A DNA stretch of 41,079 nucleotides from Candidatus Caccoplasma sp. (GCA_045654605.1 JAZONU010000165.1:1-41079); one strand, 5' to 3'; counted from the first letter of the stretch, positions 2,009 to 34,709 are shown. Notes: generated by a model not told the origin, from the letters alone. Numbers and translations: made by a program.

Positions 2009-2016
2009 TATGTTTA
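2009..2016 (+). promoter_or_regulatory. TATGTTTA box (candidate late promoter element)
   Basis: Intergenic, 12 nt upstream of the ATG at 2029. One of 11 copies with conserved flanks. Confidence 0.5.
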
Positions 2017-2028
2017 AATAAAAAAGTG

Positions 2029-2346
2029 ATGGAAACATATATAAAAGCAGAGGATATCGAACTTTTAAAGGATTTAATCAATAGAAAGAACAAGGGTTTG
2101 TCAGTGACAGCATCAACCGTTGTTGAACTATATAACCGTATAATGGGTAAGCCTGCGAAGCCAACAAGTTGTAGGGCATGTCTGATTGGTTATATTTCAA
2201 CAATGGAACGTAAGTGGGCTAACATTGAGAGAGCCATTGAAAAAACAAAGGAAGCAGAAATGAAGGAAGAAGCACCGGTGGAAGAACAGCCAAAGGAAGC
2301 AGAAGATAAGCCCAAGACTAAGGGCGTAACCAAAAAGAAGAAATAA
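2029..2346 (+). CDS. Hypothetical protein with K/E-rich C-terminus
   Basis: ORF track 2026..2346. The ATG at 2029 follows a GTG. Confidence 0.55.
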   Translation: METYIKAEDIELLKDLINRKNKGLSVTASTVVELYNRIMGKPAKPTSCRACLIGYISTMERKWANIERAIEKTKEAEMKEEAPVEEQPKEAEDKPKTKGVTKKKK

Positions 2347-2347
2347 C

Positions 2348-2857
2348 ATGGGACTAACCAAATCGCATAGCCTACCTGATGCCAAGGATCGTAAACCAAA
2401 GGCTCGTAAGTTGGATGGAAAATACTTTATCGAAGGCAAGTCGTATAAGGTTGTAGAGGATTTGGTTGAGAAGATTTACTGTTCAATATTGAACGGTGAA
2501 ACGAGGTATCAGATACAAAAGAAACTCATGGAGGGGTTGTTTGAGGGGCAACCAAAACCATACAGCATACAACAGGCAAGGGCATACTATGCTGCTGCAC
2601 TTGACCGCATAAAGGGCGATTCTGATATGAAGCAAGAGGAGGTGAGGAACGTTATACTTGGAAGGTATGAAGCAATTTTCAATGATGCGGTATTGATAGG
2701 TGATAGACAGTCTGCATTAAGGGCATTGGAAAACATAGGAAAGATATACCGTATAAATGATGATGTAAAGACGAATGTTAATATCAATACCGATAAGGCG
2801 GGTAATGTTAAGATTCAGTTCGGTTTTAAAGACGATGATGAGGAGAATGAAGAATGA
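2348..2857 (+). CDS. Putative small terminase subunit
   Basis: 169-aa ORF immediately upstream of the large terminase and overlapping it (ATGA at 2854..2857). The call rests on position and size only. Confidence 0.4.
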   Translation: MGLTKSHSLPDAKDRKPKARKLDGKYFIEGKSYKVVEDLVEKIYCSILNGETRYQIQKKLMEGLFEGQPKPYSIQQARAYYAAALDRIKGDSDMKQEEVRNVILGRYEAIFNDAVLIGDRQSALRALENIGKIYRINDDVKTNVNINTDKAGNVKIQFGFKDDDEENEE

Positions 2858-4125
2858 GTGCGGTACAGTTTGACATAAAACTTTCAGAGGCACAGCAAGA
2901 GGTATATGACATGGTGCATAGAAAGGATCTGAAGTATATTACCGTTGTATTCAGCAGACAGTCAGGAAAGACGGTGTTAATGCTTTGCCTTGTAATAGAG
3001 TGGCTTATCAATAAGAATGCGAATATTGCCTATGTGTGTCGTAACTATATACTTGCCAAGAAGTTATACCGTCAACTTGTAAAGATATTACCAAAGGATT
3101 TTATAAAGAACGCTAATGGGAGTGATTTCTTCATCGAAAGTGTATATGGTGGACAATTGACATTCTTTTCTGCTGAGAGTGGCGCAAGCCTTAGAGGACA
3201 GACATTTACACACATGATATGTGATGAGTTTGCCTTCTTTAAGATGGAACAGACAGACGGTACACACCTTTGGAATGACATTCTATCACCAACAGTTAAA
3301 GCACAAGGGGAGAAGGTTGTATTTGTAAGCACCCCACTTGGTAAACAGAATATGCTCTATGAAATGTATCTAAGGGGATTATCACCCGAATATCCAAAGT
3401 ACGGTAGCATACTGAAGACTATCTATGATGATGGCTTTATAACTCCTGATGGAATAGAAGATATAAAGAAAAGTATACCGGAGATGAGTTTTAGAAGTGA
3501 ATATTTATGTGAATTTCTCGATGGTGCATTAACTTTCTTTACCGGTTTTGAAAATTGCTTTGAAAACTTTAGATATACAGCATCAACAGAGTGGGTTGGT
3601 ATTGATGTCAGTGCAAATGGTGAGGATGCAACCGTTGTTGCAAGGATAAACGATAAGAATGAGGTAAAGGTTGAAAAGATTGACGGTACACTTGATAAGA
3701 AGTATGAGAAGATAGCGAACATCATTAACCGTATAAACCCCAATGCAGTGTATTTTGAAGTGAATGGAATAGGAGCGCCAATGTATAATGAAGTACAGAA
3801 GATGCTAAGGAATAAGAATAGAATGCATGAATGGACTACAACCAATGAAAGCAAGGAAGAGATAATAACGGATCTTGCAGTAGAGATTGCCAATAAGAAT
3901 ATCCATTTCGATAGCACAGATACAGAGTTATATGGTGAGTTTGGCACATTCATAGCGAAGATAAGCAAGACAAAGAAACTTACATTTGGAGCGCAGAATG
4001 GTAGGCATGATGATATGGTGATGGCGGTTGCAATGGCGCTGAAATGTAAGAAGGATTATAGGCGAAATAGAAATAATAATAACACATTTATAACGGCATT
4101 TGGTAGTAGAGGATGGGCGAAATAA
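2854..4125 (+). CDS. terL: Terminase large subunit
   Basis: Walker A-like VFSRQSGKT, Walker B-like HMICDEFAFF, and C-terminal nuclease-type acidic motifs (GIDVSANGEDATVV, GRHDDMVMAVAMAL). Confidence 0.9.
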   Translation: MSAVQFDIKLSEAQQEVYDMVHRKDLKYITVVFSRQSGKTVLMLCLVIEWLINKNANIAYVCRNYILAKKLYRQLVKILPKDFIKNANGSDFFIESVYGGQLTFFSAESGASLRGQTFTHMICDEFAFFKMEQTDGTHLWNDILSPTVKAQGEKVVFVSTPLGKQNMLYEMYLRGLSPEYPKYGSILKTIYDDGFITPDGIEDIKKSIPEMSFRSEYLCEFLDGALTFFTGFENCFENFRYTASTEWVGIDVSANGEDATVVARINDKNEVKVEKIDGTLDKKYEKIANIINRINPNAVYFEVNGIGAPMYNEVQKMLRNKNRMHEWTTTNESKEEIITDLAVEIANKNIHFDSTDTELYGEFGTFIAKISKTKKLTFGAQNGRHDDMVMAVAMALKCKKDYRRNRNNNNTFITAFGSRGWAK

Positions 4126-4811
4126 TGGAAGACAGCGAAAAGATAATTGATTTGGGTGAGTGGACTGTTCCCACATCATGGGATGATATAACGGTAGAAA
4201 AGTTTAGTGAACTTGAGCGTTTCTATGAAGGCAAGGATGAAAAGTTTAATACTATTGATGCGTTACATATACTGACAGACAAGACAGCAGACGAGGTAAT
4301 GGCATTACCCATTGACTTTGTAGAGAAGATGTTGGGGCAATTAAAGTTCTTATATACACCAACAGAGCCAATTAAACCGTCAAATCAGATTGAGATTGAC
4401 GGTGAAAAGTATACAGTACATACTGAGAGACAAATGAAAACAGGTGAGTTTGTAGCAGTTGATACGGTATTAAAGGCTGATAGGCATGATTATGCAAGCA
4501 TAATGGCAATACTATGTAGGAAGGATGGAGAAGAATATGATAGCAAGTTTGAGAATGAGATATTGCCCGATCGTATAGAGTTATTCAAAAAGCAGTCAAT
4601 GCTTAAGATACGTCCCATTGCGTCTTTTTTTTTAAGTATTTGGAGTCTATCCACAGCACCTTCCCTATTGTCTTTACTCATAAAGGAAGAGTTGAACAAC
4701 ACAGCCAAGAGTATAGAGACTTTAAGAAAAGATGGTCGTTTATCGCTACTGTCTACGATGCGGCTGAAGAGAAAATTGAAAAAGTTGAAGAAATCAATAG
4801 AACGTATCTGA
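4125..4811 (+). CDS. Tail assembly chaperone (G-like, frame 0 product)
   Basis: Directly upstream of the tape measure. The likely start is the ATG at 4125 overlapping the terL stop (TAATG); the track start is 4113. A T9 slippery run sits at 4625..4633. Confidence 0.6.
   Translation: MEDSEKIIDLGEWTVPTSWDDITVEKFSELERFYEGKDEKFNTIDALHILTDKTADEVMALPIDFVEKMLGQLKFLYTPTEPIKPSNQIEIDGEKYTVHTERQMKTGEFVAVDTVLKADRHDYASIMAILCRKDGEEYDSKFENEILPDRIELFKKQSMLKIRPIASFFLSIWSLSTAPSLLSLLIKEELNNTAKSIETLRKDGRLSLLSTMRLKRKLKKLKKSIERI
4625..4633 (+). other. T9 homopolymer, candidate -1 programmed frameshift site
   Basis: tc-T TTT TTT TTA read in frame 0. The -1 frame is open from 4607 through the run to 4915. Confidence 0.55.
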
Positions 4812-4915: not shown

Positions 4916-4924
4916 AGATTAAAG

Positions 4925-4950
4925 GGGTTAGTTAACGCTAACCCTTTTTT
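4925..4950 (+). terminator. Rho-independent terminator
   Basis: GGGTTAG-ttaacg-CTAACCC followed by TTTTTT. Confidence 0.8.
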
Positions 4951-4962
4951 GTTGGTACAAAG

Positions 4963-4970
4963 TATGTTTA
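4963..4970 (+). promoter_or_regulatory. TATGTTTA box
   Basis: 12 nt after the terminator and 19 nt before the ATG at 4990. Confidence 0.55.
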
Positions 4971-4989: not shown

Positions 4990-7900
4990 ATGGCAAGTGC
5001 AACAAAAGAATATAAGATTGTCATAAACGGTTTAACTGAGAGCGTTAGCCAAGTGAAGGCTTTGAGTAGTTCACTTGATGCACTTAAGGCTAAAATAGAT
5101 GCCCTCAAAAGTCAGACTATCAATGTTACGGCTAATGGTAATGGCGGTGGTAACAAGACATCTGAACTTGATCAAGAGAATAAGTTGCTCAAGCAGATAG
5201 AAGCAACTGAAAGGAAGATATCTGAAACTCGTTCCGATGATTATAAGGAACTTGTTCGTTTGAAAGATGAGTTGAAGCAAATTAAGAAGCAACAAGACGC
5301 TGCTGCTGCAAGTGCTAAACTCATGAACAACGAATATTCCCGTAACACAATGGCGGGCATGAAGGAAGAGTTGAAAGATATCCTCAGAGTAATGGACTCG
5401 CTTGATGTAGATAGCAATGAGTATAAGCAACTTAACCAAGACGCTAAGGAACTTCAAGAAACCCTCCGCGACCTTGAGGCTGCTCGCTCTTCTTTTGGCC
5501 GTAACGTTGGAAATTACACCTCAGCAGTTGATGGCTTTGATAAGTTGAAGGTTGCTGTTGGTGGTACGGTATATGAGTTTAACAGCCTAAGAGAAGCAGA
5601 AACCAAATTAAAAAACAATTTGGGTGTACTCATCCATAACAATAAGGAGAATACAGAACAGTATCAGGAGTTAGAAGAAGCGATATCCAAGGTTATAGAT
5701 GCTCAGAAGAAACTAAACTCTGCAATTGGTGACGCTAAAGCAAGTTCACAGACGATGGACAATATGCTTGATACCTTTGAGAGTATTGCAGCGTTTGGCA
5801 ATGCTATGGGTGGTATCAGAGCATTCTTTGGTTTTGATGATGCGCAAATACAGAAGTCAATACAAAGGCTTGTGGCTCTTCAAAGCGTCCTACAAGGCAT
5901 TGAGAAGATTAGGCAGCAGATGAATACCGGTGAAGGACTTGGAAAGATATTCTCAATTGGTTCAGATGCTGTGGATAGGTTTGTTGCGAAATTGACAGGT
6001 GCTGAAGTAACGATGGAAGGACTTACAAAGTCCTCTAAGGCTGCAACAACCGCTGTTAGATTATTGTCAAGTGCTTTGAAGATGATAGGGATAGGCGTCA
6101 TAACCGCTGTCGTTACCGCTGCCCTTTCTGCCATTCAGAGACTGTCAGAGGAACAGAAGAACCTCATAAACACATCTGACATCCTCAATGCCAAGATGGC
6201 TGTGCTCAACAATACGGTGGAGACACTTAAGGAACAGGCAAGGTCTGACTATCTGAAGGGTGTCATTACCGAGGAGGAGTATCTCGCAAAGGTGTATGAG
6301 GCTGAGAATAGATACCTGAGGGAGAACATAAAACTTTGGAGGCAGAGATCCAATGAGTCCTATTCACCTTTAGACAACCCGCTTAACGGCAGACTTAGGA
6401 AAGAGAACGGCAGCGGTGGGTACGACTACATGTCAAACCTTGGTATCTTCTCTTCAAAGCAAGTTGAAACCGGCATAAAGGACTTGGAGGACTTGGAGCA
6501 CAGGTTCAACATGCTGAGCAATGACCTTCTTGAGGACAGCAGCATTTGGGAAAAGGCTTGGGAGGTAATAGCACACCCAAAACTGAACAAGAGGAACTTG
6601 GTGAACATGATGGGCAACGACATCATTGTGGAATATGTCAACCAAATACAGAAAATAGACCTCAATGCCAAGGACGCTGAGAAAAGCATAGGGTCGCTGT
6701 ATCATAGGATGCAGGACTCAAGGGCGTTCCAAGAGGCTTATGCCAACATCGATAAGATAGTCCCCGATGAGAAGCTTGCCGATAACATAAAGACGATAGT
6801 TGACGCATTTAATGAACTTGGGAAGGCAGCGGAGAAGAACACAGTGGATGCAGCCAAGGCATTGCAGCAACTGAACATCGACACAATGAACGACAGGGGG
6901 CTTGGTGCCTATGCCAAGCAAAGGGCTGAACTCGCCAAGCAAGAACAAGATGAGTTGATGCAGTATGAGCATAATGAAGAGGTAAGAAACAAGATTCGCG
7001 ACAAATACGCCAAGCAAAGGGCTGACATAGACTTGGAAGAGACTAAGGCTGTAAGACAGGCTCAGAACGAGATAAGCAACTACCGCATACAAGCAATGAA
7101 GGAAGGGCTTGCTAAACAACTTGCTCAATTGAACCAAGAGAGGAAGGAAAGAATACAACAAGCACAAGAAACCGGTATTGCTGTAGGTGAGAAGATAAAG
7201 GCTATAGAGGAGTTGTATAATGCTCAGACACTCGAAGCAGAAAAGGAATGGGCTGAACAGATGACAGAAGCCTACAATGAGTTTTGGGAGAATATTGCAA
7301 ATACCAACTTTGAAAATGCCAAGGCTAATTTTAAGACTCAGTTGGAAGATCTGTCAAAGTTACTCAAAGAACAAACTGAACAGTCTCAAGACAGAAACTT
7401 TAACGGTGTAGATACTTCTTACCCTCTTCGTTATAGTTTAAGGGATAAGACGAATATTGAAAATATACTTGGTGTATCCCTTGACGATCAGTCAACATTG
7501 TTGGAAAGGTACAATGAGATAATGAATGCCTCAAAGACTTTCTACAATGAAGTACTCAACTTGCAGACAGAGTACTACAACAAGTCCAATGAGATTCAGC
7601 AGGAGTCTTTAATGAAACAAGAAGAGGCTGACAAGGCTGCTGAGGAAAAGAGGTATAACGACCTCCTGACATCGATAGCCAAGCAAGAAGAGGCTGAGAT
7701 GGACGGTCTTGTCAAGGATGAAAGCTATGAGAGGAAGAAAAAGGAAATAAGGGACAAATACAATAATTTAAGCGAGGCTGCTGAAAAGGCGCATATTAAC
7801 AAACTTAAGTCAATAGAGGAAGAGCATAGGGTTGAGAGCGAAAAAAATGAGCAAACGCGTATTGACGGTATACAACAATCCACAAATGACTATTTTCAAA

Positions 7901-9162
7901 ACAATTTAGAAAAGTATAGGGAGTTTTATAATCAATTGACAGATTTGGCTAATTCTCAGCCAATATTACATAAGTCGGGCTTTATTAACATCAAGGCGAC
8001 AAGGAAAAACTATCAAGAGGCGCTTGAAGGCTATAGAAAACTCCTATCAGATGTAGATGCAGCAAGGGATGATCTTATCGAAAAGTTCAATAATAAAGAA
8101 CTTACCTTGGTTGATATGGAGAAAATCAAGGCTGAGTTGGCAGAACTTAAAAAGCAGATAATAGAAACATCAAGTGGCGCTCAAAATAAGCAGAAAGAAG
8201 AGGAAGAATCCAACATTGATAAGATTATGTCAGAGGTATCAATGTACACTTCTTATGGTCTGCAAACAATATCAAGCATATTTGATATGTTTTGGGCATT
8301 CCAAGATGCGGCATATGAGAAAGAAATGGAGCAGATCGACAAGGACATTGAGGCGTTGGAAAAGAAACTTAATGAACAAAAGGAACTTGTACAGAAATAT
8401 GTCTCCGATGTCAATAGTATTGAAGATGAACTTGCAACGGCAAGGGGTGATCGCCGGCAAGAACTGATTGATCAACTCAATACTCAAAAGGCTGCTGAAA
8501 GGGAGGCATTGGCCGAACAGAAACGCATTGAAAGGGAAAAGGAGAAACTTGAACGGAAACAAGAAGAACTTGAATTAGAGCAAAGGAAAAGGCAGCATGA
8601 GAGAGATATAGCACAAGCAATCGTAAATGCCGCAATGGCTGTTAGTTTTGCACTTGCAAACCATTGGCCAATGCCTGCAATTGCACTTGCATCAATGGCA
8701 GCAGTACAAGGCGCTGCACAAGTAGCAGCAGTTAAGGCTCAGAAATTTGCAAGCGGTGGTATAATCGAAGGTAAGTCCCATGCAGCCGGTGGCGTTAAGG
8801 TGTTGGGTGGCGCTGCTGAAGTAGAAGGTGGTGAATTCATTACCAATAAGTATACAACGGCTAAGAATGCACAGTTGCTTGAGTTTATCAACGGTAAGAA
8901 GAAAAAGATATACTTAGAAGATATGATTGATTTCTATACTGACGGTAGAATGAAGAAGAACATCATATCAGCATCACCAAATAGAAGGTATGCAGATGGT
9001 GGACAATTACCTACCCTTAGAACTGATATCAATATCAATAACCGTATATTGGATGCTATTGAGTCTGTTGCTAATCGTCCTTCATATGTGAGTGTGGTTG
9101 AAATAGAAGACGTATCACAGAGCATGAGAAGTGTAAGAGCGCAAGCAGGATTGACTGAGTGA
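4990..9162 (+). CDS. Tail tape measure protein
   Basis: 1390 aa, long coiled-coil K/E/Q-rich segments, hydrophobic segments (GIGVITAVVTAALSAI; AIVNAAMAVSFALANHWPMPAIALASMAA), and position after the chaperone. Confidence 0.9.
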   Translation: MASATKEYKIVINGLTESVSQVKALSSSLDALKAKIDALKSQTINVTANGNGGGNKTSELDQENKLLKQIEATERKISETRSDDYKELVRLKDELKQIKKQQDAAAASAKLMNNEYSRNTMAGMKEELKDILRVMDSLDVDSNEYKQLNQDAKELQETLRDLEAARSSFGRNVGNYTSAVDGFDKLKVAVGGTVYEFNSLREAETKLKNNLGVLIHNNKENTEQYQELEEAISKVIDAQKKLNSAIGDAKASSQTMDNMLDTFESIAAFGNAMGGIRAFFGFDDAQIQKSIQRLVALQSVLQGIEKIRQQMNTGEGLGKIFSIGSDAVDRFVAKLTGAEVTMEGLTKSSKAATTAVRLLSSALKMIGIGVITAVVTAALSAIQRLSEEQKNLINTSDILNAKMAVLNNTVETLKEQARSDYLKGVITEEEYLAKVYEAENRYLRENIKLWRQRSNESYSPLDNPLNGRLRKENGSGGYDYMSNLGIFSSKQVETGIKDLEDLEHRFNMLSNDLLEDSSIWEKAWEVIAHPKLNKRNLVNMMGNDIIVEYVNQIQKIDLNAKDAEKSIGSLYHRMQDSRAFQEAYANIDKIVPDEKLADNIKTIVDAFNELGKAAEKNTVDAAKALQQLNIDTMNDRGLGAYAKQRAELAKQEQDELMQYEHNEEVRNKIRDKYAKQRADIDLEETKAVRQAQNEISNYRIQAMKEGLAKQLAQLNQERKERIQQAQETGIAVGEKIKAIEELYNAQTLEAEKEWAEQMTEAYNEFWENIANTNFENAKANFKTQLEDLSKLLKEQTEQSQDRNFNGVDTSYPLRYSLRDKTNIENILGVSLDDQSTLLERYNEIMNASKTFYNEVLNLQTEYYNKSNEIQQESLMKQEEADKAAEEKRYNDLLTSIAKQEEAEMDGLVKDESYERKKKEIRDKYNNLSEAAEKAHINKLKSIEEEHRVESEKNEQTRIDGIQQSTNDYFQNNLEKYREFYNQLTDLANSQPILHKSGFINIKATRKNYQEALEGYRKLLSDVDAARDDLIEKFNNKELTLVDMEKIKAELAELKKQIIETSSGAQNKQKEEEESNIDKIMSEVSMYTSYGLQTISSIFDMFWAFQDAAYEKEMEQIDKDIEALEKKLNEQKELVQKYVSDVNSIEDELATARGDRRQELIDQLNTQKAAEREALAEQKRIEREKEKLERKQEELELEQRKRQHERDIAQAIVNAAMAVSFALANHWPMPAIALASMAAVQGAAQVAAVKAQKFASGGIIEGKSHAAGGVKVLGGAAEVEGGEFITNKYTTAKNAQLLEFINGKKKKIYLEDMIDFYTDGRMKKNIISASPNRRYADGGQLPTLRTDININNRILDAIESVANRPSYVSVVEIEDVSQSMRSVRAQAGLTE

Positions 9163-9175: not shown

Positions 9176-9207
9176 GGGGGGTATCTATGATGGTATTCCC
9201 CTTTTTT
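9176..9207 (+). terminator. Rho-independent terminator
   Basis: GGGGGGTATC-tatgat-GGTATTCCCC (with G-U pairs) followed by TTTTTT. Confidence 0.75.
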
Positions 9208-9239: not shown

Positions 9240-9247
9240 TATGTTTA
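9240..9247 (+). promoter_or_regulatory. TATGTTTA box
   Basis: 17 nt before the ATG at 9265. The track start 9241 lies inside the box and is therefore unlikely. Confidence 0.5.
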
Positions 9248-9264: not shown

Positions 9265-9561
9265 ATGAAAAACGAAAGTTGGTCAGATTTATCAGTTAAG
9301 GAAAAAGCAGCAATAATCTCAGCGATTGCAGCCTTTATCGTTGGTTGGGCATTGACCATAGCCGGTTTCTGTGTTTACCCACTTGGAGAAATCGCAGACA
9401 GTATATTATGGGTACTTGGGCAAGCACTTATCTATGCTGCAAGTGTCTTTGGGATAACATCATACTTTACATGTGAATCAAGACGCTTGAAACGGGACAT
9501 AACAGAGTTCGTTGAGAGAAGTATTGAAAGACAAAGCGAGCATGAATCAGAGAGCGAATAA
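9265..9561 (+). CDS. Holin-like small membrane protein
   Basis: Two hydrophobic helices (AAIISAIAAFIVGWALTIAGFCVY; SILWVLGQALIYAASVFGITSYF), a charged C-terminal tail, and location in the lysis cluster. Confidence 0.5.
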   Translation: MKNESWSDLSVKEKAAIISAIAAFIVGWALTIAGFCVYPLGEIADSILWVLGQALIYAASVFGITSYFTCESRRLKRDITEFVERSIERQSEHESESE

Positions 9562-10060
9562 CATTATAATAGGCATATTGCTTACACTTGCTGTTATACT
9601 ACTTATAACGGTTGGGCATTATAAGGGAAAGGTTAAGGATAAACCTCTCTCAGATACCCTTGTAACCGTACATTATGATACTGTTTACAATACAATATTT
9701 AAAGTAGTCGAAAAGCCCGTTTTAAGGCTCGTAGAGACGATAAAACATGATACGGTATATCAGTCCAACGATACCGTAATAACGCTTCCTATCGAAAGAA
9801 AAATATATAACGATACCATCATATGCGAAGAAGCAGACAGTGTCATATTGGAGAGTACTATAGTAGGCATAAATCCATCCTTAGAATCAATCAAAGCAAA
9901 GTTGAAAAGGCGAGAAATTCATCAAAGCACAGAGAAAATAATCACAAAGTACAAGGAAAAGAAAGGTTTTTATATCGCGCCTAATGCGTCAATTGGATAC
10001 GGTATATTCAGTAAACAGCCGGATATCTACCTTGGTGTGGGAATAGGATACAGATTTTAA
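9542..10060 (+). CDS. N-terminally membrane-anchored lysis-cluster protein (spanin-like candidate)
   Basis: The ATG at 9542 gives MNQRANNIIIGILLTLAVILLITV, a signal anchor. The C-terminus YLGVGIGYRF has alternating hydrophobic residues and a terminal Phe. Confidence 0.4.
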   Translation: MNQRANNIIIGILLTLAVILLITVGHYKGKVKDKPLSDTLVTVHYDTVYNTIFKVVEKPVLRLVETIKHDTVYQSNDTVITLPIERKIYNDTIICEEADSVILESTIVGINPSLESIKAKLKRREIHQSTEKIITKYKEKKGFYIAPNASIGYGIFSKQPDIYLGVGIGYRF

Positions 10061-10061
10061 T

Positions 10062-10247
10062 ATGGAAGAACAACATTACAAGGTAGACTTTTATACAGAC
10101 GATTGCGTCATGTACATTGCTGATGAGGGGTGGTATTTTACCGATATAACTGAGTTTTACAATTACGGTAGGATAATATATGACAGTCCAAAGGTTAAGT
10201 TCAGCAAGTATTATAAGGTTAAAAGAATATTAAAAGAGGATGAGTGA
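10062..10247 (+). CDS. Hypothetical small protein
   Basis: 61-aa ORF packed between lysis genes. It overlaps the endolysin start by 8 nt. Confidence 0.45.
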   Translation: MEEQHYKVDFYTDDCVMYIADEGWYFTDITEFYNYGRIIYDSPKVKFSKYYKVKRILKEDE

Positions 10248-10671
10248 GTACATTACAAAAAACTTTACCTATGATGAATTAACCGGTTCAACAGTAGCAA
10301 AGAGACTTGGACTTGACAATACACCATCTGAGGTAGAGAAGAAGAGGCTTGTAATGCTTGCAAATGAGGTGTTACAGCCGATCAGGGACGCATGGAAGAG
10401 CGCAATCATTGTCAATAGTGCATATCGCAGTGAAGAGGTAAATAAAGCCGTAGGAGGCGTTAAAAACAGTCAACATAGAAAAGGTGAGGCTGCTGATATA
10501 ACGGTTGGTAGTAAGGAAAGGAATAAGAAGTTATTCAATTTTATACAGAAGTTGATTAATAACGGTACAATAGAAGTTGGACAACTTATTGACGAATATC
10601 ATTATAGTTGGATACATGTATCACTACCAAGGTCGAATGCAATGAACAATCAGATACTACACTTAGGTTAA
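10240..10671 (+). CDS. Endolysin, peptidase M15-type (zinc D-Ala-D-Ala carboxypeptidase-like)
   Basis: SAYRSEEVNKAVGGVKNSQHRKGEAADI (H-x6-D) plus the downstream WIHVS His match the M15 metal-binding pattern. Confidence 0.85.
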   Translation: MSEYITKNFTYDELTGSTVAKRLGLDNTPSEVEKKRLVMLANEVLQPIRDAWKSAIIVNSAYRSEEVNKAVGGVKNSQHRKGEAADITVGSKERNKKLFNFIQKLINNGTIEVGQLIDEYHYSWIHVSLPRSNAMNNQILHLG

Positions 10672-10722: not shown

Positions 10723-10756
10723 GAGGGATTAGACGGTGACTAATCCCTCATTTTTA
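10723..10756 (+). terminator. Rho-independent terminator
   Basis: Perfect 10-bp stem GAGGGATTAG/CTAATCCCTC, 7-nt loop, then ATTTTTA. Confidence 0.8.
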
Positions 10757-10774: not shown

Positions 10775-10782
10775 TATGTTTA
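10775..10782 (+). promoter_or_regulatory. TATGTTTA box
   Basis: 18 nt after the terminator. It has the longest leader of the set, 53 nt to the ATG at 10836. Confidence 0.5.
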
Positions 10783-12355: not shown

Positions 12356-12390
12356 TTCTAACACTACATAGATAACAATTCGGTTATCGA

Positions 12391-12419
12391 GGGGTACAGA
12401 ATCGCTGTACCCCTTTTTT
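12391..12419 (+). terminator. Rho-independent terminator
   Basis: GGGGTACAG-aatcg-CTGTACCCC followed by TTTTTT. Confidence 0.85.
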
Positions 12420-12431
12420 ATGGCCTCTGAG

Positions 12432-12439
12432 TATGTTTA
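12432..12439 (+). promoter_or_regulatory. TATGTTTA box
   Basis: 12 nt after the terminator and 18 nt before the ATG at 12458. Confidence 0.55.
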
Positions 12440-13496: not shown

Positions 13497-13497
13497 A

Positions 13498-14880: not shown

Positions 14881-14885
14881 AAATC

Positions 14886-17786: not shown

Positions 17787-17796
17787 GTCTTTCAGA

Positions 17797-19140: not shown

Positions 19141-19157
19141 AATAAAAGATAAATAAG

Positions 19158-20351: not shown

Positions 20352-20356
20352 GAAAA

Positions 20357-22051: not shown

Positions 22052-22075
22052 TAAATGTAATAATAAAAGACAAAG

Positions 22076-24690: not shown

Positions 24691-24698
24691 TATGTTTA
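24691..24698 (+). promoter_or_regulatory. TATGTTTA box
   Basis: 20 nt before the ATG at 24719. Confidence 0.5.
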
Positions 24699-24718: not shown

Positions 24719-25492
24719 ATGAATAATTGCGATTATAACATCTACGACTATTGGGGCTGTTGTAACTCCATTGACCTTTCCCACTATGCCACTGATTCAG
24801 ATATTGACAAACTGTGGGATGCGCTTGAGGCTATTTCAATAAGCGGTGAATGCGAATGCGATTTAACAGAGATTGAAGCCCAATTATCTGCAATACAGGC
24901 TTCGATCATAAGCCTTGCTGATAGAGTATCCACCCTTGAGGGAATAATGGCTCAGAAGGCAGATTCCTCAGCCCTTACAGAGATATGGGATGCGCTCTCA
25001 GAATGTTGCAGTGGAACACCAACGCCACCTGAGCCTCCAACCCCAACAGGCACAACCAAAAAGTTCGTAATAACGGTATCAGGAGGCTCAAACATTGAGG
25101 CTGATTGTGATACAGACTACTACTTGGACTCAACACAGACCAAGCAAGACTCAAGTACATTTATGAGATACCTTACCGCTGAGATTGGGGACTGTATAAC
25201 TGAGATCGGTGATGGTGTATTTCAAGGCTGCTTTAACATGACAAGTATAACCGTACCAAGTGGAGTGACTGACATACATAACTACGCATTCTCAACAACT
25301 CATGTGGAGGCACCCGTAACACATTTGGATATCTATATCTACGCTACGATACCACCAACATTACATGATGATGGTGAGCCTCAATTTGGGTATTTCCCTG
25401 AAGATTGTACAATATATGTCCCAAGTGGCTCATTAACGGCATATCAAAGTGCATGGCCTGACATTGCATCGAAAATTCATGCAATTGTCTAA
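24719..25492 (+). CDS. Coiled-coil, proline linker and single LRR_5 cap protein (fibre-associated)
   Basis: Cys-rich N-terminus, heptad-like LSAIQASIISLADRVSTLEGIMAQK, PTPPEPPTPTG linker, then IGDGVFQGCFNMTSITVPSGVTDI and the cap IPPTL...TIYVPSGSLTAYQSAW. Confidence 0.55.
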   Translation: MNNCDYNIYDYWGCCNSIDLSHYATDSDIDKLWDALEAISISGECECDLTEIEAQLSAIQASIISLADRVSTLEGIMAQKADSSALTEIWDALSECCSGTPTPPEPPTPTGTTKKFVITVSGGSNIEADCDTDYYLDSTQTKQDSSTFMRYLTAEIGDCITEIGDGVFQGCFNMTSITVPSGVTDIHNYAFSTTHVEAPVTHLDIYIYATIPPTLHDDGEPQFGYFPEDCTIYVPSGSLTAYQSAWPDIASKIHAIV

Positions 25493-25503
25493 ATCAAGTT
25501 AAG

Positions 25504-25535
25504 GGCTTATCAGTTTATGGTAAGCCTTTTCTTTT
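25504..25535 (+). terminator. Rho-independent terminator
   Basis: GGCTTATC-agtttat-GGTAAGCC followed by TTTTCTTTT. Confidence 0.7.
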
Positions 25536-25540
25536 GAAAG

Positions 25541-25548
25541 TATGTTTA
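25541..25548 (+). promoter_or_regulatory. TATGTTTA box
   Basis: Follows the terminator directly; 19 nt before the ATG at 25568. Confidence 0.5.
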
Positions 25549-25567: not shown

Positions 25568-25744
25568 ATGATATACAGTCAAATAAACGGGATGGAAGGT
25601 TACTATGAGTTGGTTGCTGATAACGGTGATAAGATGCTTATACCGTCAACCAATATAATCATAGTTAACGATGGGAGTGGTTTGCTCTCTATAAAAAACA
25701 CAGCCTCAAGGTGTACAGTTGCACTTGTGAGAGATAATAATTAA
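25568..25744 (+). CDS. Small hypothetical protein (58 aa, below the ORF-track cutoff)
   Basis: Hand translation: MIYSQINGMEGYYELVADNGDKMLIPSTNIIIVNDGSGLLSIKNTASRCTVALVRDNN-stop. It is preceded by a TATGTTTA box at the usual spacing. Confidence 0.4.
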   Translation: MIYSQINGMEGYYELVADNGDKMLIPSTNIIIVNDGSGLLSIKNTASRCTVALVRDNN

Positions 25745-25771: not shown

Positions 25772-27484
25772 ATGTCTGCAAATAAGATTCAATTAACAAA
25801 AAACGATGAGTCAGTACTCTTTACCTTCACTGACTCCAAACATTACCTTACCGGTAATGGACGAATTGAAGTGCCTTTGAACAGCCTATCGCTTGTTATC
25901 GATTCAAGCGACATGGTGACATTTAGAAAGGCTGCATCAAATGACATCTTCGTATCAGCACCTATCAGCGACTTTGGAATGTCAAAGGCTGAAATAGAGG
26001 AGTGGTACGCAGAGAATATGGTGGGTGCATCCGGAGGTGGTGGTATTGACCCTGAGACACTTGCTGAATTGGTATCAAGCGCTGAATATGTATCATCTTC
26101 TTCTACCATCGATTTTAAGAATGTCGACGGTGAGGTGATAAGCACAATAAACGCAGAACCTTTTATCACCGATGGTATGGTGGATAATGTTCAGATAAGC
26201 GGTAATAACCTTGTCATAACCTTTAATGTTGATGCGGGTAAACAACCTATTAGTATTCCACTGTCAAGCATATTTGACCCAAGCAACTACTATGATAAGA
26301 GCGCAACAGATACGCTTCTCAGTGGTAAGGTGGCTGTAACTGATTACAACACATATACGGCTGCTACCAATACCGCATTAAGTGGAAAGGCTGATGTATC
26401 TGCTGTAACGGCTATCGCTGATTCACTTAGTGGTAAGCAAGATACATTGCTATTCTATACCGAGGAAGACAATACTGAGGACGGTACAAAGGATGCTATG
26501 ATTGAGACGGTTATTGAAGACACTGAGAACGGTGTAACAAAAACTGCATATGTAGAGTCACTTGTAAATGATTATTCTCCATTTGCTGAAATATATGCTT
26601 CTACTGAAGTTAACAATAGCGAAGAGTCATATCAAAAAAGTGCTGATGTATATGTTGATTCAGAAGATGGCCTTTATCTTGGTTATCAGACACAAGACGA
26701 TAATGAACAGACTTACTCTGAAGCTAAATTAGAAATTGGTGCTAATGGTATTTCTCTAAATGTAGATAACGGAGAAGATATTGTATCCTTTAACGTCACC
26801 GCTGATGGTGTTGATATTGATGGTGATGCCGTTGTTACAGAATCCCAACTTATTGACTATGCTACGGTAGCATCACTTAGTGGAAAGCAAGACACCCTCA
26901 TTGCCGGTAGTGGAATAACCATAAGTGGAAATGTTATCAGTGCTGATGGTGGAAGTAGTGATCCTAACAAGTTGGATGTAACGGCATTTACCGCATACAG
27001 TGCTGCAACTTCTACCGCAATAAGTGGAAAGGCTAACGCAAGCGATGTGGTGTCAATATCCGATTATGATGAGGCTCAGAGAGTGACTGCAACAGCCCTT
27101 AATGACCTAAATGATAGGAAACAAGACACCCTTGTAGCCGGTAGTGGAATTACCATAAGTGGAAATGTTATCAGTGCTGATGGTGGAGGTGGTTCGATAA
27201 CAATTGACCAAACCCTTGACAGTGGTTCGACAAATGCTGTTGCAAATAGCGCGATAACGGATGCAATAGATGCTGTTTCTGATGCATTAAGTGGAAAGGT
27301 GGATACATCTGCTGTAACAAGTTCTGTAACAAGCGGTTCAACAGATGTTGTAACAAGTGGTGGTGTATATGAGCAGATGGGTGGTCTGAAACTTAGGAAA
27401 CTAACACAAGCCCAATATGATGACCTTGTTACGAAGGATGATAATACCCTTTACATCATAACTAATGTTGTTAATAACGCTTAA
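25772..27484 (+). CDS. Tail fibre protein
   Basis: Repeated xxALSGKADVSAV / SLSGKQDTLIAGSGITISGNVISADGG segments, and the C-terminal LTQAQYDDLVTKDDNTLYIITN typical of fibre tips. Confidence 0.7.
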   Translation: MSANKIQLTKNDESVLFTFTDSKHYLTGNGRIEVPLNSLSLVIDSSDMVTFRKAASNDIFVSAPISDFGMSKAEIEEWYAENMVGASGGGGIDPETLAELVSSAEYVSSSSTIDFKNVDGEVISTINAEPFITDGMVDNVQISGNNLVITFNVDAGKQPISIPLSSIFDPSNYYDKSATDTLLSGKVAVTDYNTYTAATNTALSGKADVSAVTAIADSLSGKQDTLLFYTEEDNTEDGTKDAMIETVIEDTENGVTKTAYVESLVNDYSPFAEIYASTEVNNSEESYQKSADVYVDSEDGLYLGYQTQDDNEQTYSEAKLEIGANGISLNVDNGEDIVSFNVTADGVDIDGDAVVTESQLIDYATVASLSGKQDTLIAGSGITISGNVISADGGSSDPNKLDVTAFTAYSAATSTAISGKANASDVVSISDYDEAQRVTATALNDLNDRKQDTLVAGSGITISGNVISADGGGGSITIDQTLDSGSTNAVANSAITDAIDAVSDALSGKVDTSAVTSSVTSGSTDVVTSGGVYEQMGGLKLRKLTQAQYDDLVTKDDNTLYIITNVVNNA

Positions 27485-27501
27485 AATAATATATAAGAAA
27501 T

Positions 27502-28533
27502 ATGGCAAATAAATATATACAAGCATATGCAACTGAGGCGGCTTATAACGCTGCAAGCAAACCAAGTCCTAATGTATCGTTCGTATATGCAACAGATAAG
27601 TTATACTACAACGGTGAAGAACATCAAATGCCTATTGATTACTCGACAAAGTATCTGACATTTGTCGCGTTGGAAGACGGAACGATTAGCTGTAGTTATA
27701 ATTATAGAAATCTTTATTATTCATTGAATAGCGGTACTACTTGGACAAATTATACCGGTCAAGTGACGGTACAGAGTGGTAGTACTATTATGTGGAAGAG
27801 CAACGCCCCAATTGTTACTTATGCAAAAAACATCTCATTTTCTTCAACGGGGTTGATTAATATTGAAGGGAATGCACTGTCTCTTATTTACGGTGATGAT
27901 TTTATAGGTAAAACAACCATTAGTACAGCGAAGAACCAAGAAGACTTCAAGGGGGCATTTGGCGCGTTAAAAATAGTGAGCGCTGAGAACCTAATTTTAC
28001 TCGCTGCTAACACAAGTAGTTGTTATCAAGACGCTTTTGCAGGGTGTTCAACAATGACAATACCGCCAAAACTTCCTGCAACGGAATTGGGAGGTACTTG
28101 TTATGGTAATATGTTCGCAAGTTGTACGGGTCTAACTACTGCTCCTGAGCTTCCTGCAACTACATTGGCGCAACAATGCTATTGGAGAATGTTCTATGGT
28201 TGCACAAGTCTAACTACAGCACCTGAACTTCCTGCAACTACATTGGCAAATTGGTGTTATAATTATATGTTCAGTGGTTGTACAAGTCTAACAACAGCAC
28301 CTTCAATACTTCCTGCAACTACATTGACAACTTCTTGTTATAGTTATATGTTCAATGGTTGTACAAACATTAATTCCGTAACTTGCCTTGCAACTTCGAA
28401 TATAATTAGTTCAAATATTGGTTATTGGCTTGATGGTGTTGCTGCAACCGGTACATTCACAAAGAAAGCGGGAGTCACTTGGCCAAGTGGAGCAAGTGGT
28501 ATCCCTACGGGTTGGACTGTGGTAGAGGTCTAA
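27502..28533 (+). CDS. DUF285/BspA-type 26-residue-repeat receptor-binding protein
   Basis: Four units LPATxLxxxCYxxMFxGCTSLTTAPE (28072 onward), then the conserved end VTCLAT...W..GVAATGTFTK...GIPTGWTVV. It is a paralogue of 29503..30999. Confidence 0.75.
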   Translation: MANKYIQAYATEAAYNAASKPSPNVSFVYATDKLYYNGEEHQMPIDYSTKYLTFVALEDGTISCSYNYRNLYYSLNSGTTWTNYTGQVTVQSGSTIMWKSNAPIVTYAKNISFSSTGLINIEGNALSLIYGDDFIGKTTISTAKNQEDFKGAFGALKIVSAENLILLAANTSSCYQDAFAGCSTMTIPPKLPATELGGTCYGNMFASCTGLTTAPELPATTLAQQCYWRMFYGCTSLTTAPELPATTLANWCYNYMFSGCTSLTTAPSILPATTLTTSCYSYMFNGCTNINSVTCLATSNIISSNIGYWLDGVAATGTFTKKAGVTWPSGASGIPTGWTVVEV

Positions 28534-29472: not shown

Positions 29473-29480
29473 TATGTTTA
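29473..29480 (+). promoter_or_regulatory. TATGTTTA box
   Basis: 22 nt before the ATG at 29503. Confidence 0.5.
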
Positions 29481-29502: not shown

Positions 29503-30999
29503 ATGAGTATAAAAATTGGTTCGAACGATATAAGCAAGATATACCTTGGCTCTACAGAGATTGAGAAGATATACCAAGGTAGCACCGTCATATATTCAGG
29601 AGGTAGTGAACCGACACCACCAAGTTATGATACACAATACCTTACTTTTAGGGCTTTGGAGAGTGGTACGTTCAAATTCAGTGGTACAACGCCAACAACG
29701 GCAAATACATTGCAGTACTCAGTGGACAGCGGTGCAACATGGAATACCCTTGCCTTTAATACTGATAGCCCAACGGTACAAAGTGGTGGTACAATTATGT
29801 GGAAGGCAAGTGGATTGGCAACGGACACAAATAATGGAACATTGAAGTTTATTTCAACGGGTCGTTTTGAGGCTGAGGGAAATGTTATGTCACTCATAAG
29901 CGGTGATACATTCACAAGCGCAACAACAATACCAAGTAATAATTATTTCCATTGGTTATTTAATGGATGTTCGGGATTGACGAGTGCGGAAAACATGGTA
30001 CTCCCTGCAACTACATTGGCAGTGGGTTGTTATAGTCAAATGTTCCAAGGTTGTACAAGTCTAACAACCCCGCCACAGCTTCCTGCAACCACATTGGCAA
30101 ATAGTTGCTATTCATATATGTTCAATGGTTGTACGTCTTTGGCAACTGCGCCTGAACTTCCTGCTACTACATTGGCAGATTGGTGTTATAGCGGTATGTT
30201 CCAAGGTTGTACAAATCTAACAACGGCACCACAGCTTCCTGCAACCACATTAACAAATAGTTGCTATCAAAATATGTTCTATGCCTGTACAAGCCTAACA
30301 ACAGCACCTGAACTTCCTGCAACAACATTAGCAGATTATTGTTATTATAGTATGTTCGAAAATTGCTCAAGCCTAACTACAGCACCACAACTCCCTGCAA
30401 CTACGTTGGCAGAATGTTGTTATCAAGGTATGTTCGAAAATTGCTCAAGCCTAACTACAGCACCACAACTCCCTGCTACCACATTGGCAGATTATTGTTA
30501 TTATAGTATGTTCGACAGTTGTACAAGCCTTAATTCCATTACTTGTCTTGCAACGGATATAAGTGCAGTCGATTGTACCACAAGTTGGGTGAATGGTGTT
30601 GCTTCAACAGGTACATTTACGTCTGCCGTAGGAATGGCTGATTGGAGGTGTGGCAAAAATGGTATACCTACCGATTGGACGGTTGTAGGTGGTGAGCCTT
30701 GCCAAGGTGGTGGCGATGTAGTGGTTGAATTGAATGCTGATGTAGACCTCAATCAATGGTGCGGTGTCGAATTGCCGCAATATTTGATAAATTTTGATCG
30801 CATGATTAATGGTAGTTTATATTTTAATGATAATGACTCAGATGCTTGTGATGGGAGTTTTTATATGGGGCAAGAGGTAGACATGAGATTTTCTTCTCCT
30901 CCAATTGACTTGGATAATTACAGATACCTATGTGCTTTGCAACCGAACTTTTTTGACTATCCCAACACTCTCTACTTCTCAGATGACCCTGACGCATAA
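29503..30999 (+). CDS. DUF285/BspA-type 26-residue-repeat receptor-binding protein with an extra C-terminal domain
   Basis: Seven LPATTLAxxCYxxMFxxCxSLTTAPQ/E units, the conserved ITCLAT...WVNGVASTGTFT...GIPTDWTVV, then a roughly 95-aa extension absent from 27502..28533. Confidence 0.75.
   Translation: MSIKIGSNDISKIYLGSTEIEKIYQGSTVIYSGGSEPTPPSYDTQYLTFRALESGTFKFSGTTPTTANTLQYSVDSGATWNTLAFNTDSPTVQSGGTIMWKASGLATDTNNGTLKFISTGRFEAEGNVMSLISGDTFTSATTIPSNNYFHWLFNGCSGLTSAENMVLPATTLAVGCYSQMFQGCTSLTTPPQLPATTLANSCYSYMFNGCTSLATAPELPATTLADWCYSGMFQGCTNLTTAPQLPATTLTNSCYQNMFYACTSLTTAPELPATTLADYCYYSMFENCSSLTTAPQLPATTLAECCYQGMFENCSSLTTAPQLPATTLADYCYYSMFDSCTSLNSITCLATDISAVDCTTSWVNGVASTGTFTSAVGMADWRCGKNGIPTDWTVVGGEPCQGGGDVVVELNADVDLNQWCGVELPQYLINFDRMINGSLYFNDNDSDACDGSFYMGQEVDMRFSSPPIDLDNYRYLCALQPNFFDYPNTLYFSDDPDA
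30001..30546 (+). repeat. In-frame 78-nt (26-codon) tandem repeat array, seven units
   Basis: Units start at 30001 with a 78-nt period. 30352..30398 and 30430..30476 are identical over 47 nt. Confidence 0.85.
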
Positions 31000-31032
31000 C
31001 CACATTTAATCACAATACTACTACTTATAAAG

Positions 31033-31067
31033 GGCGATGGGTAAATAATACTTATCGCCTTTTTTTA
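31033..31067 (+). terminator. Rho-independent terminator
   Basis: GGCGAT(GG) / (TT)ATCGCC stem followed by T8. Confidence 0.65.
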
Positions 31068-31096: not shown

Positions 31097-31104
31097 TATG
31101 TTTA
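31097..31104 (+). promoter_or_regulatory. TATGTTTA box
   Basis: 29 nt after the terminator and 24 nt before the ATG at 31129. Confidence 0.5.
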
Positions 31105-31128
31105 ATATAGAATAAAATATTTATATTT

Positions 31129-32370
31129 ATGGGACGTAAACAAGGAAGTCTTAATAAGCCAAAAATAACCGGTAACAACCTATCTGTCTTACGTTTTGAG
31201 AAGCAGATAGAAGGATCCGCGATAACGCGTAAGAATACAGCGTATGATTTCATATCATGGGGTCAGCGTAACACATATCCTGACATACTCTTAGGGCTAT
31301 ATAACGAAAGCCCAACTCATCATGCAGCAATACAGTTTGAGGTTGCAAGCATCATAGGCAATGGTGTTGACTATGAGGCAATGAAACTTGACGGTAGTCA
31401 GGTATTCCCTAATTACGCGTATTCATATGATGAACTGATACGAAACCTTGCACTTGATTTCAGTCTATACGGTAGTTACGCGCTACAGATAATTAAGAAC
31501 AAGGATGGAAAGTCGTACAGTTTTTGGCATATGCCTATGGACAAAGTACGCTGTGCGCCTTATGACGAAGACGGTCAAATAACTCAGTACGCGATAAGCA
31601 ACGATTGGAGTAAGATATCACAGAATCCCCCTATATGGTTAGATAGTTTTGACATGAGGGACGAAAGCACCATCGAAAAGGGTAAGCCTTATCTGTATGT
31701 ATATAGGAAGTACAGCCCAACTATGGAGTACTACACAAGCCCTACATACCAAGCAGCAATTAAGGCAATCGAAAGCGAATGCGAATACATGAATTTTGAT
31801 CTTCGTACAACGGTTAATAACTTTGTTCCATCAGGTATGCTGTTGCTGAATGAGGTAGAGACAGACGAACAACGAAGAGAGGTAATAGACAACGTACAAC
31901 GAATGTTCACCTCTTCAGAGGGAGCAAATAGCGTTATGATTGCTTTTCGTTCAAATGTGGAGGAGATTAAGCCGGAGTTTATCCCATTCACTGCAAGTCA
32001 GACAAATGTTGACTTATATTCGAATGCGAATCAAAGGAATATCAATAGGATATTAGCCGGTCATCAGATACCAAATGCATCACTCATAGGAATGCCCGAT
32101 GTTAATAACAGTGGTTTTGCCTCAGAAGCCGATAAGTTAGAGACCGCATACCAACTCTATCAGAAGGTGGTTGGTAACTATAACCGTTCATGCGTCATTA
32201 AGACTATCAACGACATGTTTCGTCTGAATGGTGTCAATGTTGAAATTATCATGAAGCCACTTGTCTTTAATGACTTTGGTTCAGATAACGATACGGCTAA
32301 TGATACCACAAGCACTGACGCGAATCAAGACACATCCACCGGTAACATCGAAGAACAAGTGACGGTTTGA
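31129..32370 (+). CDS. Portal protein candidate
   Basis: 413 aa. Its size, acidic C-terminus and position just upstream of the XkdF-like protease/scaffold support the call, as does a general resemblance to portal-family sequences (DFSLYGSYALQIIKNKDGK...). Confidence 0.6.
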   Translation: MGRKQGSLNKPKITGNNLSVLRFEKQIEGSAITRKNTAYDFISWGQRNTYPDILLGLYNESPTHHAAIQFEVASIIGNGVDYEAMKLDGSQVFPNYAYSYDELIRNLALDFSLYGSYALQIIKNKDGKSYSFWHMPMDKVRCAPYDEDGQITQYAISNDWSKISQNPPIWLDSFDMRDESTIEKGKPYLYVYRKYSPTMEYYTSPTYQAAIKAIESECEYMNFDLRTTVNNFVPSGMLLLNEVETDEQRREVIDNVQRMFTSSEGANSVMIAFRSNVEEIKPEFIPFTASQTNVDLYSNANQRNINRILAGHQIPNASLIGMPDVNNSGFASEADKLETAYQLYQKVVGNYNRSCVIKTINDMFRLNGVNVEIIMKPLVFNDFGSDNDTANDTTSTDANQDTSTGNIEEQVTV

Positions 32371-32407
32371 GGATTCCATAATTGTATAAAGAAAAAAGAA
32401 TAATAAT

Positions 32408-32944
32408 ATGATTATCAATAAAAAATATTTAAAGGAGAAATCTCCAATTCCTATCAACTACCAACTTGATGAACTCATGAACTATGTACCCGTTGCTGAA
32501 GCCATTTGGGTTAAGCCGGTAATTGGTGATGACTTCTATGACGAACTTCAAGAGCAAGTGGAAGAAGACGCGTTAACTGAGGAAAACGCAACATTACTTA
32601 TTGACATTCTTTGGCAGTACCTATCATATGCAACGGTATTGGAAGGATTACCCGTTATTTGGGCGAACTTTTCTCAAGTTGGCATAACGCTTGGAAAGTC
32701 AGAAAATTCTGAGTCAGTGAGCCTTAAGGATATGACTTACATCGAACAGCACATAAGAAGGCAAGTTGAGGTACTTAAAGATCAACTGTACGACTACCTT
32801 GAGACACACCTTGAGTCATTCCCATTGTATCATTCAAGGAACTGCACATGTAACAAGTGTTGCACAAAGAATGGCAAACTGAATACCCCAAACCCTATGC
32901 AACAGATATACGGTATGAGGAGAAAATGCACCAATCTTAAGTAA
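32408..32944 (+). CDS. Hypothetical head-associated protein
   Basis: 178-aa ORF between the portal and the protease. No motif recognised. Confidence 0.4.
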   Translation: MIINKKYLKEKSPIPINYQLDELMNYVPVAEAIWVKPVIGDDFYDELQEQVEEDALTEENATLLIDILWQYLSYATVLEGLPVIWANFSQVGITLGKSENSESVSLKDMTYIEQHIRRQVEVLKDQLYDYLETHLESFPLYHSRNCTCNKCCTKNGKLNTPNPMQQIYGMRRKCTNLK

Positions 32945-32949
32945 TAAAG

Positions 32950-32957
32950 TATGTTTA
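32950..32957 (+). promoter_or_regulatory. TATGTTTA box
   Basis: 19 nt before the ATG at 32977. Confidence 0.5.
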
Positions 32958-34704: not shown

Positions 34705-34709
34705 AGCTC

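Follow-up and report, generated by a model that had tools for sequence, protein, structure and literature searches.

The stretch of DNA analysed here, 41,079 nucleotides (nt) from Candidatus Caccoplasma sp. (GCA_045654605.1 JAZONU010000165.1:1-41079; the window), carries a temperate phage in which a gene for a sigma-like protein (1404..1991) is followed on the + strand by genes for a large terminase (2854..4125, a match to Pfam Terminase_6N), a capsid-like protein, tail-type proteins, a portal and a protease, an assortment that marks this part as the late (virion) region. The − strand block 34393..38595 encodes a DnaD-like replication initiator, and the integrase gene 39445..40743 (−) codes for a protein with Arm-DNA-bind_5 and Phage_int_SAM_5 domains. 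The subject of this report is the octamer TATGTTTA, called the box below, which recurs in front of the late genes, and its relation to the product of the sigma-like gene.

Exact matching on both strands returned 11 copies of TATGTTTA, all on the + strand at precisely the positions given in the initial annotation, and none on the − strand. In 100 dinucleotide-preserving shuffles of the window, with both strands counted, the mean was 3.9 copies and none of the shuffles reached 11. When genes were defined from the list of open reading frames (ORFs) together with family matches, intergenic sequence amounted to 3,440 nt (8.4%) and coding sequence to 37.6 kb. All 11 copies lie in the gaps between genes, where a first-order Markov model of intergenic sequence predicts 0.32 (Poisson P = 6e-14), and coding sequence holds none against an expectation of 1.5 on the + strand and 1.9 on the − strand. 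The excess is confined to the intergenic + strand, which bears out the earlier description of every copy as intergenic and excludes an equal frequency inside genes or on the opposite strand. The box is also the most frequent intergenic octamer, the runners-up being sequences that overlap it, and the extended form TATGTTTAWWNWAA occurs nine times where 0.11 would be expected.

The surroundings of the boxes are ordered as well. The next ATG follows at 12-24 nt, or at 53 nt in the case of the capsid-like gene (Table 1), and a purine (A or G) immediately precedes the box in each of the 11 copies, as had been noted, and in 31 of 35 sites when the window is pooled with related loci from IMG/VR. Downstream the box is followed by WWNW-AA, with the AA pair at a fixed distance (5-6 nt after the box) and the ATG at a variable one; the flanks follow the box, independently of the ATG, and so appear tied to the box rather than to the start codon. 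Each of the 11 boxes ends in A and carries TG at the positions written 'nn' in the Bacteroidota −7 element TAnnTTTG. Each also holds an internal ATG, which is out of frame or dead-ended. Shine-Dalgarno sequences are lacking before the late genes. No TTTG was found 16-23 nt upstream of any of the 11 boxes, in agreement with the claim that they have no −33 element, and searches for a −35 signal gave a similar picture: column information over positions −45 to −9 of 35 sites was uninformative except for terminator T-runs, and k-mer enrichment over 52 sites yielded parts of terminators only.

It had been proposed that seven boxes lie shortly downstream of a hairpin with a T-run, and all seven terminators were recovered, six by a consensus scan and the seventh (31032-31066), whose long loop had hidden it from the scan, by folding. 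In these seven pairs the final T-run ends 5-32 nt before the box. Since the terminators are strong, the genes downstream would need an initiation site of their own.

Table 1. Features of the window that bear on the box and its candidate reader. Start sites (+1) are predicted; spacer is the distance from box to ATG.
Feature	Coordinates	Strand	Spacer (nt)	Predicted +1	Remarks
Sigma-like gene	1404..1991	+			Candidate box reader; divergent two-domain (sigma-2 + sigma-4) sigma of extracytoplasmic function (ECF) type, 195 aa; NCBIfam, PHROG via family, AlphaFold/Foldseek
Box 1	2009..2016	+	12	A2021	17 nt past the sigma stop codon; precedes 2029..4811 (includes large terminase)
Terminator	4921..4953	+			12-bp stem and T-run; closes terminase unit
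Box 2	4963..4970	+	19	A4975	Precedes 1390-aa gene 4990..9162
Intrinsic terminator	9176..9207	+
Box 3	9240..9247	+	17	A9252	Precedes 9265..10671
Intrinsic terminator	10723..10755	+
Box 4	10775..10782	+	53	A10787	Precedes capsid-like gene 10836..11786 (PHROG virion structural protein)
Intrinsic terminator	12389..12421	+			Closes capsid unit
Box 5	12432..12439	+	18	A12444	Precedes 12458..17744
Intrinsic terminator	17750..17790	+
Box 6	17797..17804	+	16	A17809	Precedes 17821..24682 (repeat-rich tail-type genes)
Box 7	24691..24698	+	20	A24703	No upstream terminator; precedes 24719..25492
Intrinsic terminator	25501..25536	+
Box 8	25541..25548	+	19	A25553	Precedes 58-aa ORF 25568..25744 and 25772..28533
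Box 9	29473..29480	+	22		Precedes 29503..30999; adjoins inserted − strand HNH gene; atypical downstream flank taatgtaaaa
Intrinsic terminator	31032..31066	+			Minimum free energy fold: 15-pair hairpin, 5-nt loop, outer pairs use the T-run; then T7
Box 10	31097..31104	+	24		Precedes portal gene 31129..32370 (PHROG portal, E=1.8e-36)
Box 11	32950..32957	+	19	A32962	Precedes XkdF-type protease 32977..34005 (Peptidase_S78_2)
Canonical Bacteroidota-type promoter	35161..35192	+			TTTG-N20-TAACTTTG
Canonical promoter, second copy	37671..37702	+			TTTG-N20-TAACTTTG
Canonical promoter	41001..41031	−			TTTG-N19-TACCTTTG; aimed at the integrase gene; duplicated at 669-699

The pattern extends to other phages. 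Twenty IMG/VR loci that were found through the sigma gene (34-48% identity of the protein) contain 57 copies of TATGTTTA on the gene strand versus 7 on the other (P = 8e-11), and in the window and IMG/VR loci together YATGTTTAWWNWAA is matched on the gene strand by 52 distinct sequences, mostly upstream of genes, although this count used no position filter and a few matches lie inside genes. Nine contigs with close homologues (L001-L008 and L058) share a gene order in which the integrase is followed by small ORFs and in some cases an HNH gene, then by the sigma, at least two small genes, the terminase and a protein of ~1300 aa, with boxes at the corresponding gaps. Of the relatives checked, about two-thirds have a box at the position of box 1, after the sigma gene, including some whose sigma identity is as low as 38%; the box there is absent or altered in L010, L017, L020, L022, L024, L026 and L028. 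Box 2 has an ortholog in L001, L004 and L058, the upstream terminator in L001 being a different hairpin, and box 11 has one in L007. In 11 orthologous gaps at box 5, which precede the gene whose protein begins 'MLKDV...', neither ATGTTTA nor the AA pair varies, whereas the terminator stem of these gaps does, with compensatory changes in 6 of 10 pairs. Variants of the box occur in L039 (CATGTTTA), L037 (TATGTTAA) and after the sigma gene of L058 (TATGTTCA), and no G-ending form was seen among the variants at box sites of relatives.

Box and sigma gene were also found together when neither search started from the sigma gene. Four loci picked by terminase alone all encode the sigma (E ≤ 1e-63), and three of the four carry the box or a variant in their gaps. 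A motif-first scan of IMG/VR with TTTTTCATATGTTTAWWWAAA matched 17 contigs; the seven in which two or more copies share a strand and stand in promoter context all have genes for homologues of late proteins of the window phage, and they encode the sigma wherever the fetched stretch includes that region. The 10 remaining contigs are very AT-rich and match by chance; nine have a single match, and the multiple boxes of the tenth, L043, were rejected as promoters because the copies sit in coding repeats. Repeated octamers in L028 were set aside in the same way, being part of 51-nt coding repeats. A covariation between sigma lineage and box variant was considered and rejected, since other genomes mix T and C at position 1, which is loose. 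The Bacteroides phages B40-8 and p00, used as controls, show neither the sigma nor the motif pattern. Sigma gene and box co-occur in all contigs of the clade whose fetched stretch spans the sigma region and, judging from these sequence comparisons, the pair is conserved across a large uncultured phage clade. No close relative that had lost the sigma was found, so the association is strong without amounting to a clean presence/absence test. Among GenBank phages the window has no nucleotide match, tblastn with the sigma finds no carrier, and the terminase finds only relatives below 30% identity.

The 1404..1991 gene had been described as sigma-like, and profile and structure comparisons corroborate this. 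NCBIfam TIGR02937 (sigma70-ECF) matches residues 10-156 of the protein with E=4e-8, at 33 bits against a curated cut-off of 42.9. The same model is matched by 39 of 86 family members (best E 4.5e-9), the Bacteroides ECF expansion model by 10, and PHROG 1740 ('RNA polymerase sigma factor') by 9 of the 86. The window protein alone gives no match in Pfam or PHROG, and the Pfam gathering score is never reached; the closest Pfam result is a weak match to Sigma70_r4_2 in 9 of the 86 members (best E 0.002). A sequence search of the PDB with the sigma profiles returned noise only. A word-indexed search retrieved 14 close homologues, and a profile search extended the family to 235 clusters at 50% identity, nearly all of ~190-205 aa. 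An AlphaFold2 model built from the 86-sequence alignment has a mean pLDDT of 95.6 and displays the ECF architecture, in which a linker connects the helical domains sigma-2 and sigma-4. Among the top nine Foldseek matches in the PDB, eight are sigma H or L of M. tuberculosis within transcription initiation complexes; ranks 1-6 are the ECF sigmas H/L and rank 7 is free E. coli sigma E with the anti-sigma RseA. These top matches cover 169-192 aligned columns with probabilities of 0.82-0.98 and modest E-values (0.03-0.2). Isolated sigma-4 domains also match the sigma model in Foldseek, with TM scores up to 0.71, and an earlier structure model of the protein gave the same picture. An hhalign comparison with E. 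coli RpoE placed region 4 in register but was weak (E=0.007, probability 5%) and is not relied on. Taken by fold and profile, the protein is a real but very divergent two-domain sigma, which by the family thresholds ranks as a relative and not as a certified member.

A second class of promoters, anticipated by the initial annotation, is found on the other side of the genome. The bipartite sequence TTTG-N18-21-TAnnTTTG occurs seven times in the window versus 1.3 expected; four of these lie in early or lysogeny-side gaps (669−, 35161+, 37671+, 41001−) and none in a + strand late-region gap. The −7 element alone, TAnnTTTG, is likewise missing from the + strand late-region gaps. The exact TAnnTTTG copies reported earlier on the lysogeny side hold at 35102-35109 (−), 37612-37619 (−) and 41001-41008 (−), and the fourth has to be moved, as it lies at 38742-38749 (+) and not at 38751. 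This type of promoter, the domains of the integrase and the lack of Shine-Dalgarno sequences before the late genes suggest that the phage host is probably a gut or rumen Bacteroidota. Genome contigs scanned with the sigma and terminase profiles gave no match.

Considering these observations together, we infer that the boxes are probably the core of a −10-type late promoter without a −35 element, with the consensus YATGTTTA-WWNW-AA, read by the sigma encoded at 1404..1991. The host RNA polymerase with its primary sigma would transcribe the early, replication and lysogeny genes from TTTG/TAnnTTTG promoters, and the phage sigma, once made, would bind the host core polymerase and start transcription at each box. 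With TATGTT taken as the −10 hexamer, the element would span −12 to −7 and keep A−11 and T−7; the conserved AA would then be +1/+2 and the leaders would measure 8-20 nt (49 nt for the capsid-like gene). The internal ATG of the box would be tolerable because the start site would lie downstream of it. Terminators upstream of seven boxes would insulate the units, and the late region would consist of about 11 separately initiated cassettes for packaging, the 1390-aa protein, the capsid-like protein, tail, fibres, portal and protease. With its fixed TG and its final A the box would differ from the host TAnnTTTG, so that late genes stay silent until the phage sigma is made; these fixed bases and the absence of a G-ending form fit insulation from the host primary sigma. 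The phage sigma is the most likely reader because no other conserved phage protein was found to have a fold that binds RNA polymerase, and box 1 directly follows its gene in the window, as the first box does in about two-thirds of the checked relatives.

Several points weigh against this proposal. The assignment of the sigma is below threshold by sequence (33 versus 42.9 bits, nothing in Pfam at gathering, Foldseek E of 0.03-0.2). ECF sigmas normally need a −35 element at fixed spacing from the −10, a trait that the boxes do not show, yet the protein keeps a confident sigma-4-like helix-turn-helix while a −35 is undetectable. The predicted leaders are very short. Exact + strand boxes are few in some members of the clade and L037 and L017 have none. 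Since no close relative without the sigma was found, a different conserved phage factor or a host factor could be the reader.

The T4 late promoters had been offered as a parallel. In T4 the sigma-like gp55 reads TATAAATA together with gp33 and the gp45 sliding clamp. As a matter of sequence layout only, the boxes are similar in being 8-bp −10-type elements without a −35, repeated before late genes, and the +1 predicted here, 5 nt after the box, agrees with the T4 layout. The parallel holds in function, as a −10-type, −35-less late promoter, and fails in structure: gp55 has the region-2 part only and depends on gp33 and a DNA-loaded clamp, whereas the protein described here keeps a sigma-4-like domain. 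Neither the protein nor its family matches the gp55 families of Pfam or PHROG and, unlike T4, the window phage is temperate. Because of the sigma-4-like domain, gp36 of phage phiEco32 is the closer analogue. That protein is a phage sigma with two domains, and the one element it recognises, tAATGTAtA, has its centre at −11.5 (PMC12276001, PMC4331800). As in phiEco32 and phage 7-11, a two-domain phage sigma of ~200 aa is proposed here to redirect the host core polymerase, and as in phiEco32 the element is a single −10-region sequence with an ATGT core, no reported −35 consensus and multiple copies before middle or late genes. The two proteins lack homology beyond generic region 2 (hhalign E=0.043 over 40 columns; best BLASTP E=0.22). 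In addition, phiEco32 is a lytic E. coli podovirus that uses the cofactor gp79, for which no counterpart was identified in the window phage. The +1 given here is predicted from sequence.

The position of the regulator gene recalls another system. According to PMC3152322, RinA-family activators are encoded just upstream of terS in temperate Gram-positive phages, bind upstream of terS at a promoter region controlling the late operon, and switch on packaging and virion genes. The window phage is like these in being temperate and having the regulator gene immediately upstream of the packaging genes, and differs in its 11 dispersed boxes separated by terminators. The sigma protein and its family give no Pfam or PHROG match to RinA-family regulators.

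The resemblance of the box to primary-sigma promoters of Bacteroidota (−33 TTTG, −7 TAnnTTTG) raises an alternative. Both have the TA..TTT skeleton and lie at similar distances from start codons, and they differ in the terminal A, the TG fixed at 'nn' and the lack of a −33 TTTG in the boxes. It is possible, though unlikely, that the boxes are weak −7 variants without a −33 element, which the host holoenzyme reads only when helped by a phage activator, maybe the 1404..1991 product acting as a sigma-4-like activator or appropriator. An activator-dependent promoter would look much like TATGTTTA, which fits 7 of the 8 positions of TAnnTTTG and has no −33 TTTG, and no −35 partner was found for the sigma-4-like domain. 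However, relaxed recognition by the host sigma predicts something other than a final A and a TG in 11 of 11 window copies and nearly all sites of relatives, and it sits poorly with the absence of G-ending forms among the variants. The sigma-2-like domain of the protein is moreover complete, and the whole protein can be aligned, from end to end, with ECF sigmas of holoenzyme structures.

Readings that take the box out of promoter function altogether carry less weight. The boxes resemble the oriented, intergenic, multi-copy stoperators of mycobacteriophage L5, and being asymmetric, of single orientation and part of a temperate phage, they could be sites of a DNA-binding regulator other than a sigma, such as a stoperator-like immunity repressor that blocks late elongation in the lysogen. 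We regard this as decidedly improbable. Stoperators would also be expected near early promoters and to differ between heteroimmune relatives, but the early/lysogeny region, where an operator should be, holds no copies, and the sequence is invariant across phages whose sigmas are 34-48% identical, while the specificity of immunity tends to change fast among phages. At the seven boxes that directly follow strong terminators a block of elongation would be redundant, and such sites do not explain the −10-like sequence or the fixed distance to the conserved AA. An element acting in RNA, UAUGUUUA with an A-rich tract in 5' leaders, could serve processing, stability or translation control; it would suit the strand specificity and the location 12-24 nt before start codons, and A-rich leaders favour translation in Bacteroidota (PMC6847099). 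This possibility is very improbable, as the A-rich flank moves with the box independently of the ATG, little transcript would get past the efficient terminators 5-32 nt upstream to carry the element, an upstream AUG in every leader would be harmful, and no Rfam family matches. Chance, or a compositional artefact of AT-rich gaps, has a negligible probability: intergenic DNA is indeed AT-rich, but that explanation is refuted by the count over expectation given above, by the empty − strand and by the conservation of orthologous positions in many genomes.

Returning to the sigma-driven promoter, we found no description in the literature of the motif or of a sigma-driven late promoter class in phages of Bacteroidota, and no functional annotation of the sigma-family proteins in the sources searched. 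Phage sigmas with late promoters of their own are a classic mechanism, and it appears that none has been described for Bacteroidota phages. In a broader version, to which we would give even chances, this family, undetected by Pfam and comprising at least 235 clusters at 50% identity, would be the common late switch of an abundant uncultured temperate clade, reading the −35-less YATGTTTA-N4-AA. If so, the promoter copies the host −7 box save for three fixed bases, a naturally orthogonal sigma/promoter pair exists for a phylum with unusual transcription machinery, and the role of a conserved sigma-4 domain without a −35 becomes a question. Confirmation would give a function to a widespread family of hypothetical proteins, and the promoter consensus and predicted starts would help to annotate a large clade of gut and rumen phages. 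It would also provide a compact orthogonal toolkit of sigma, promoter and terminator for engineering Bacteroides or Prevotella, and a natural case of an ECF-like sigma that works without a −35, with three base changes separating phage from host promoters.

The gap upstream of the sigma operon (628-751) contains neither TAnnTTTG nor TATGTTTA on the + strand. Box-like variants are present just upstream in relatives, TATCTTTA in L004 (3474) and, in L037 (~7195), AATGTTTA at 4 nt from the sigma ATG; they hint at autoregulation or a middle promoter class. A near-perfect match to the E. coli-type promoter TTGACA-18-TAGAAT at 651-680 (+) overlaps the Bacteroidota-type integrase promoter on the − strand (669-699) and for that reason is most likely a coincidence.

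On the lysogeny side, a cassette of ~130 nt is duplicated at 35093-35222 and 37603-37732. Both copies combine a TAnnTTTG box that faces left with a canonical promoter that faces right, is followed by CAGTTGCTCGGWGGTGTATACCTTATTATA and points into − strand genes. The cassette may produce antisense or small RNAs or form a regulatory switch. Within the DnaD-like gene 37900-38595 (−), positions 38019-38215 hold ~16 tandem 12-nt repeats, candidate iterons or an origin, comparable to the lambda ori inside gene O, or else the code for a low-complexity protein linker.

Further features belong to the late genes themselves. The 1390-aa product of 4990..9162 matches no Pfam family and gives a marginal PHROG match (E=0.002); it is kept at 1302-1410 aa in all relatives, always in its own terminator-to-terminator unit after the terminase block. 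Tandem coding repeats of 78 nt (26 aa) occur in two paralogous genes (27502-28533 and 29503-30999), and repeats of 69 nt (23 aa) run over 3-4 adjacent genes at 20357-25492 that match PHROGs 35892 and 18805. These repeat-bearing genes probably encode receptor-binding or tail-fibre proteins. No tRNA genes or Rfam families were detected within the window.

An exact direct repeat of 119 nt is present at 629-747 and 40961-41079. In the near-identical L058, which is without this duplication, position 1 of the window corresponds to a point 6 nt past the ATG of an HNH gene of 210 aa (L058 3340-3972). That gene sits between the integrase and the sigma operon, its part in the window is 1-627, and the repeat flanks it. 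The window thus has the appearance of a circular genome of ~41.1 kb whose opening point lies just within the HNH gene, and the idea that the repeat marks a circle of 40,332 bp was dropped after this comparison. Homing-endonuclease genes of the HNH (NUMOD3) type are also inserted in late-region gaps, often between terminator and box. The copy in the window (28655-29452, −) is flanked by a 40-nt duplication (28608-28647 and 29480-29519) that corresponds to the leader and first codons of gene 29503, and HNH or GIY-YIG genes occupy other gaps in relatives (L001 11101-11685; L004 5561-6175 and 13787-14410).

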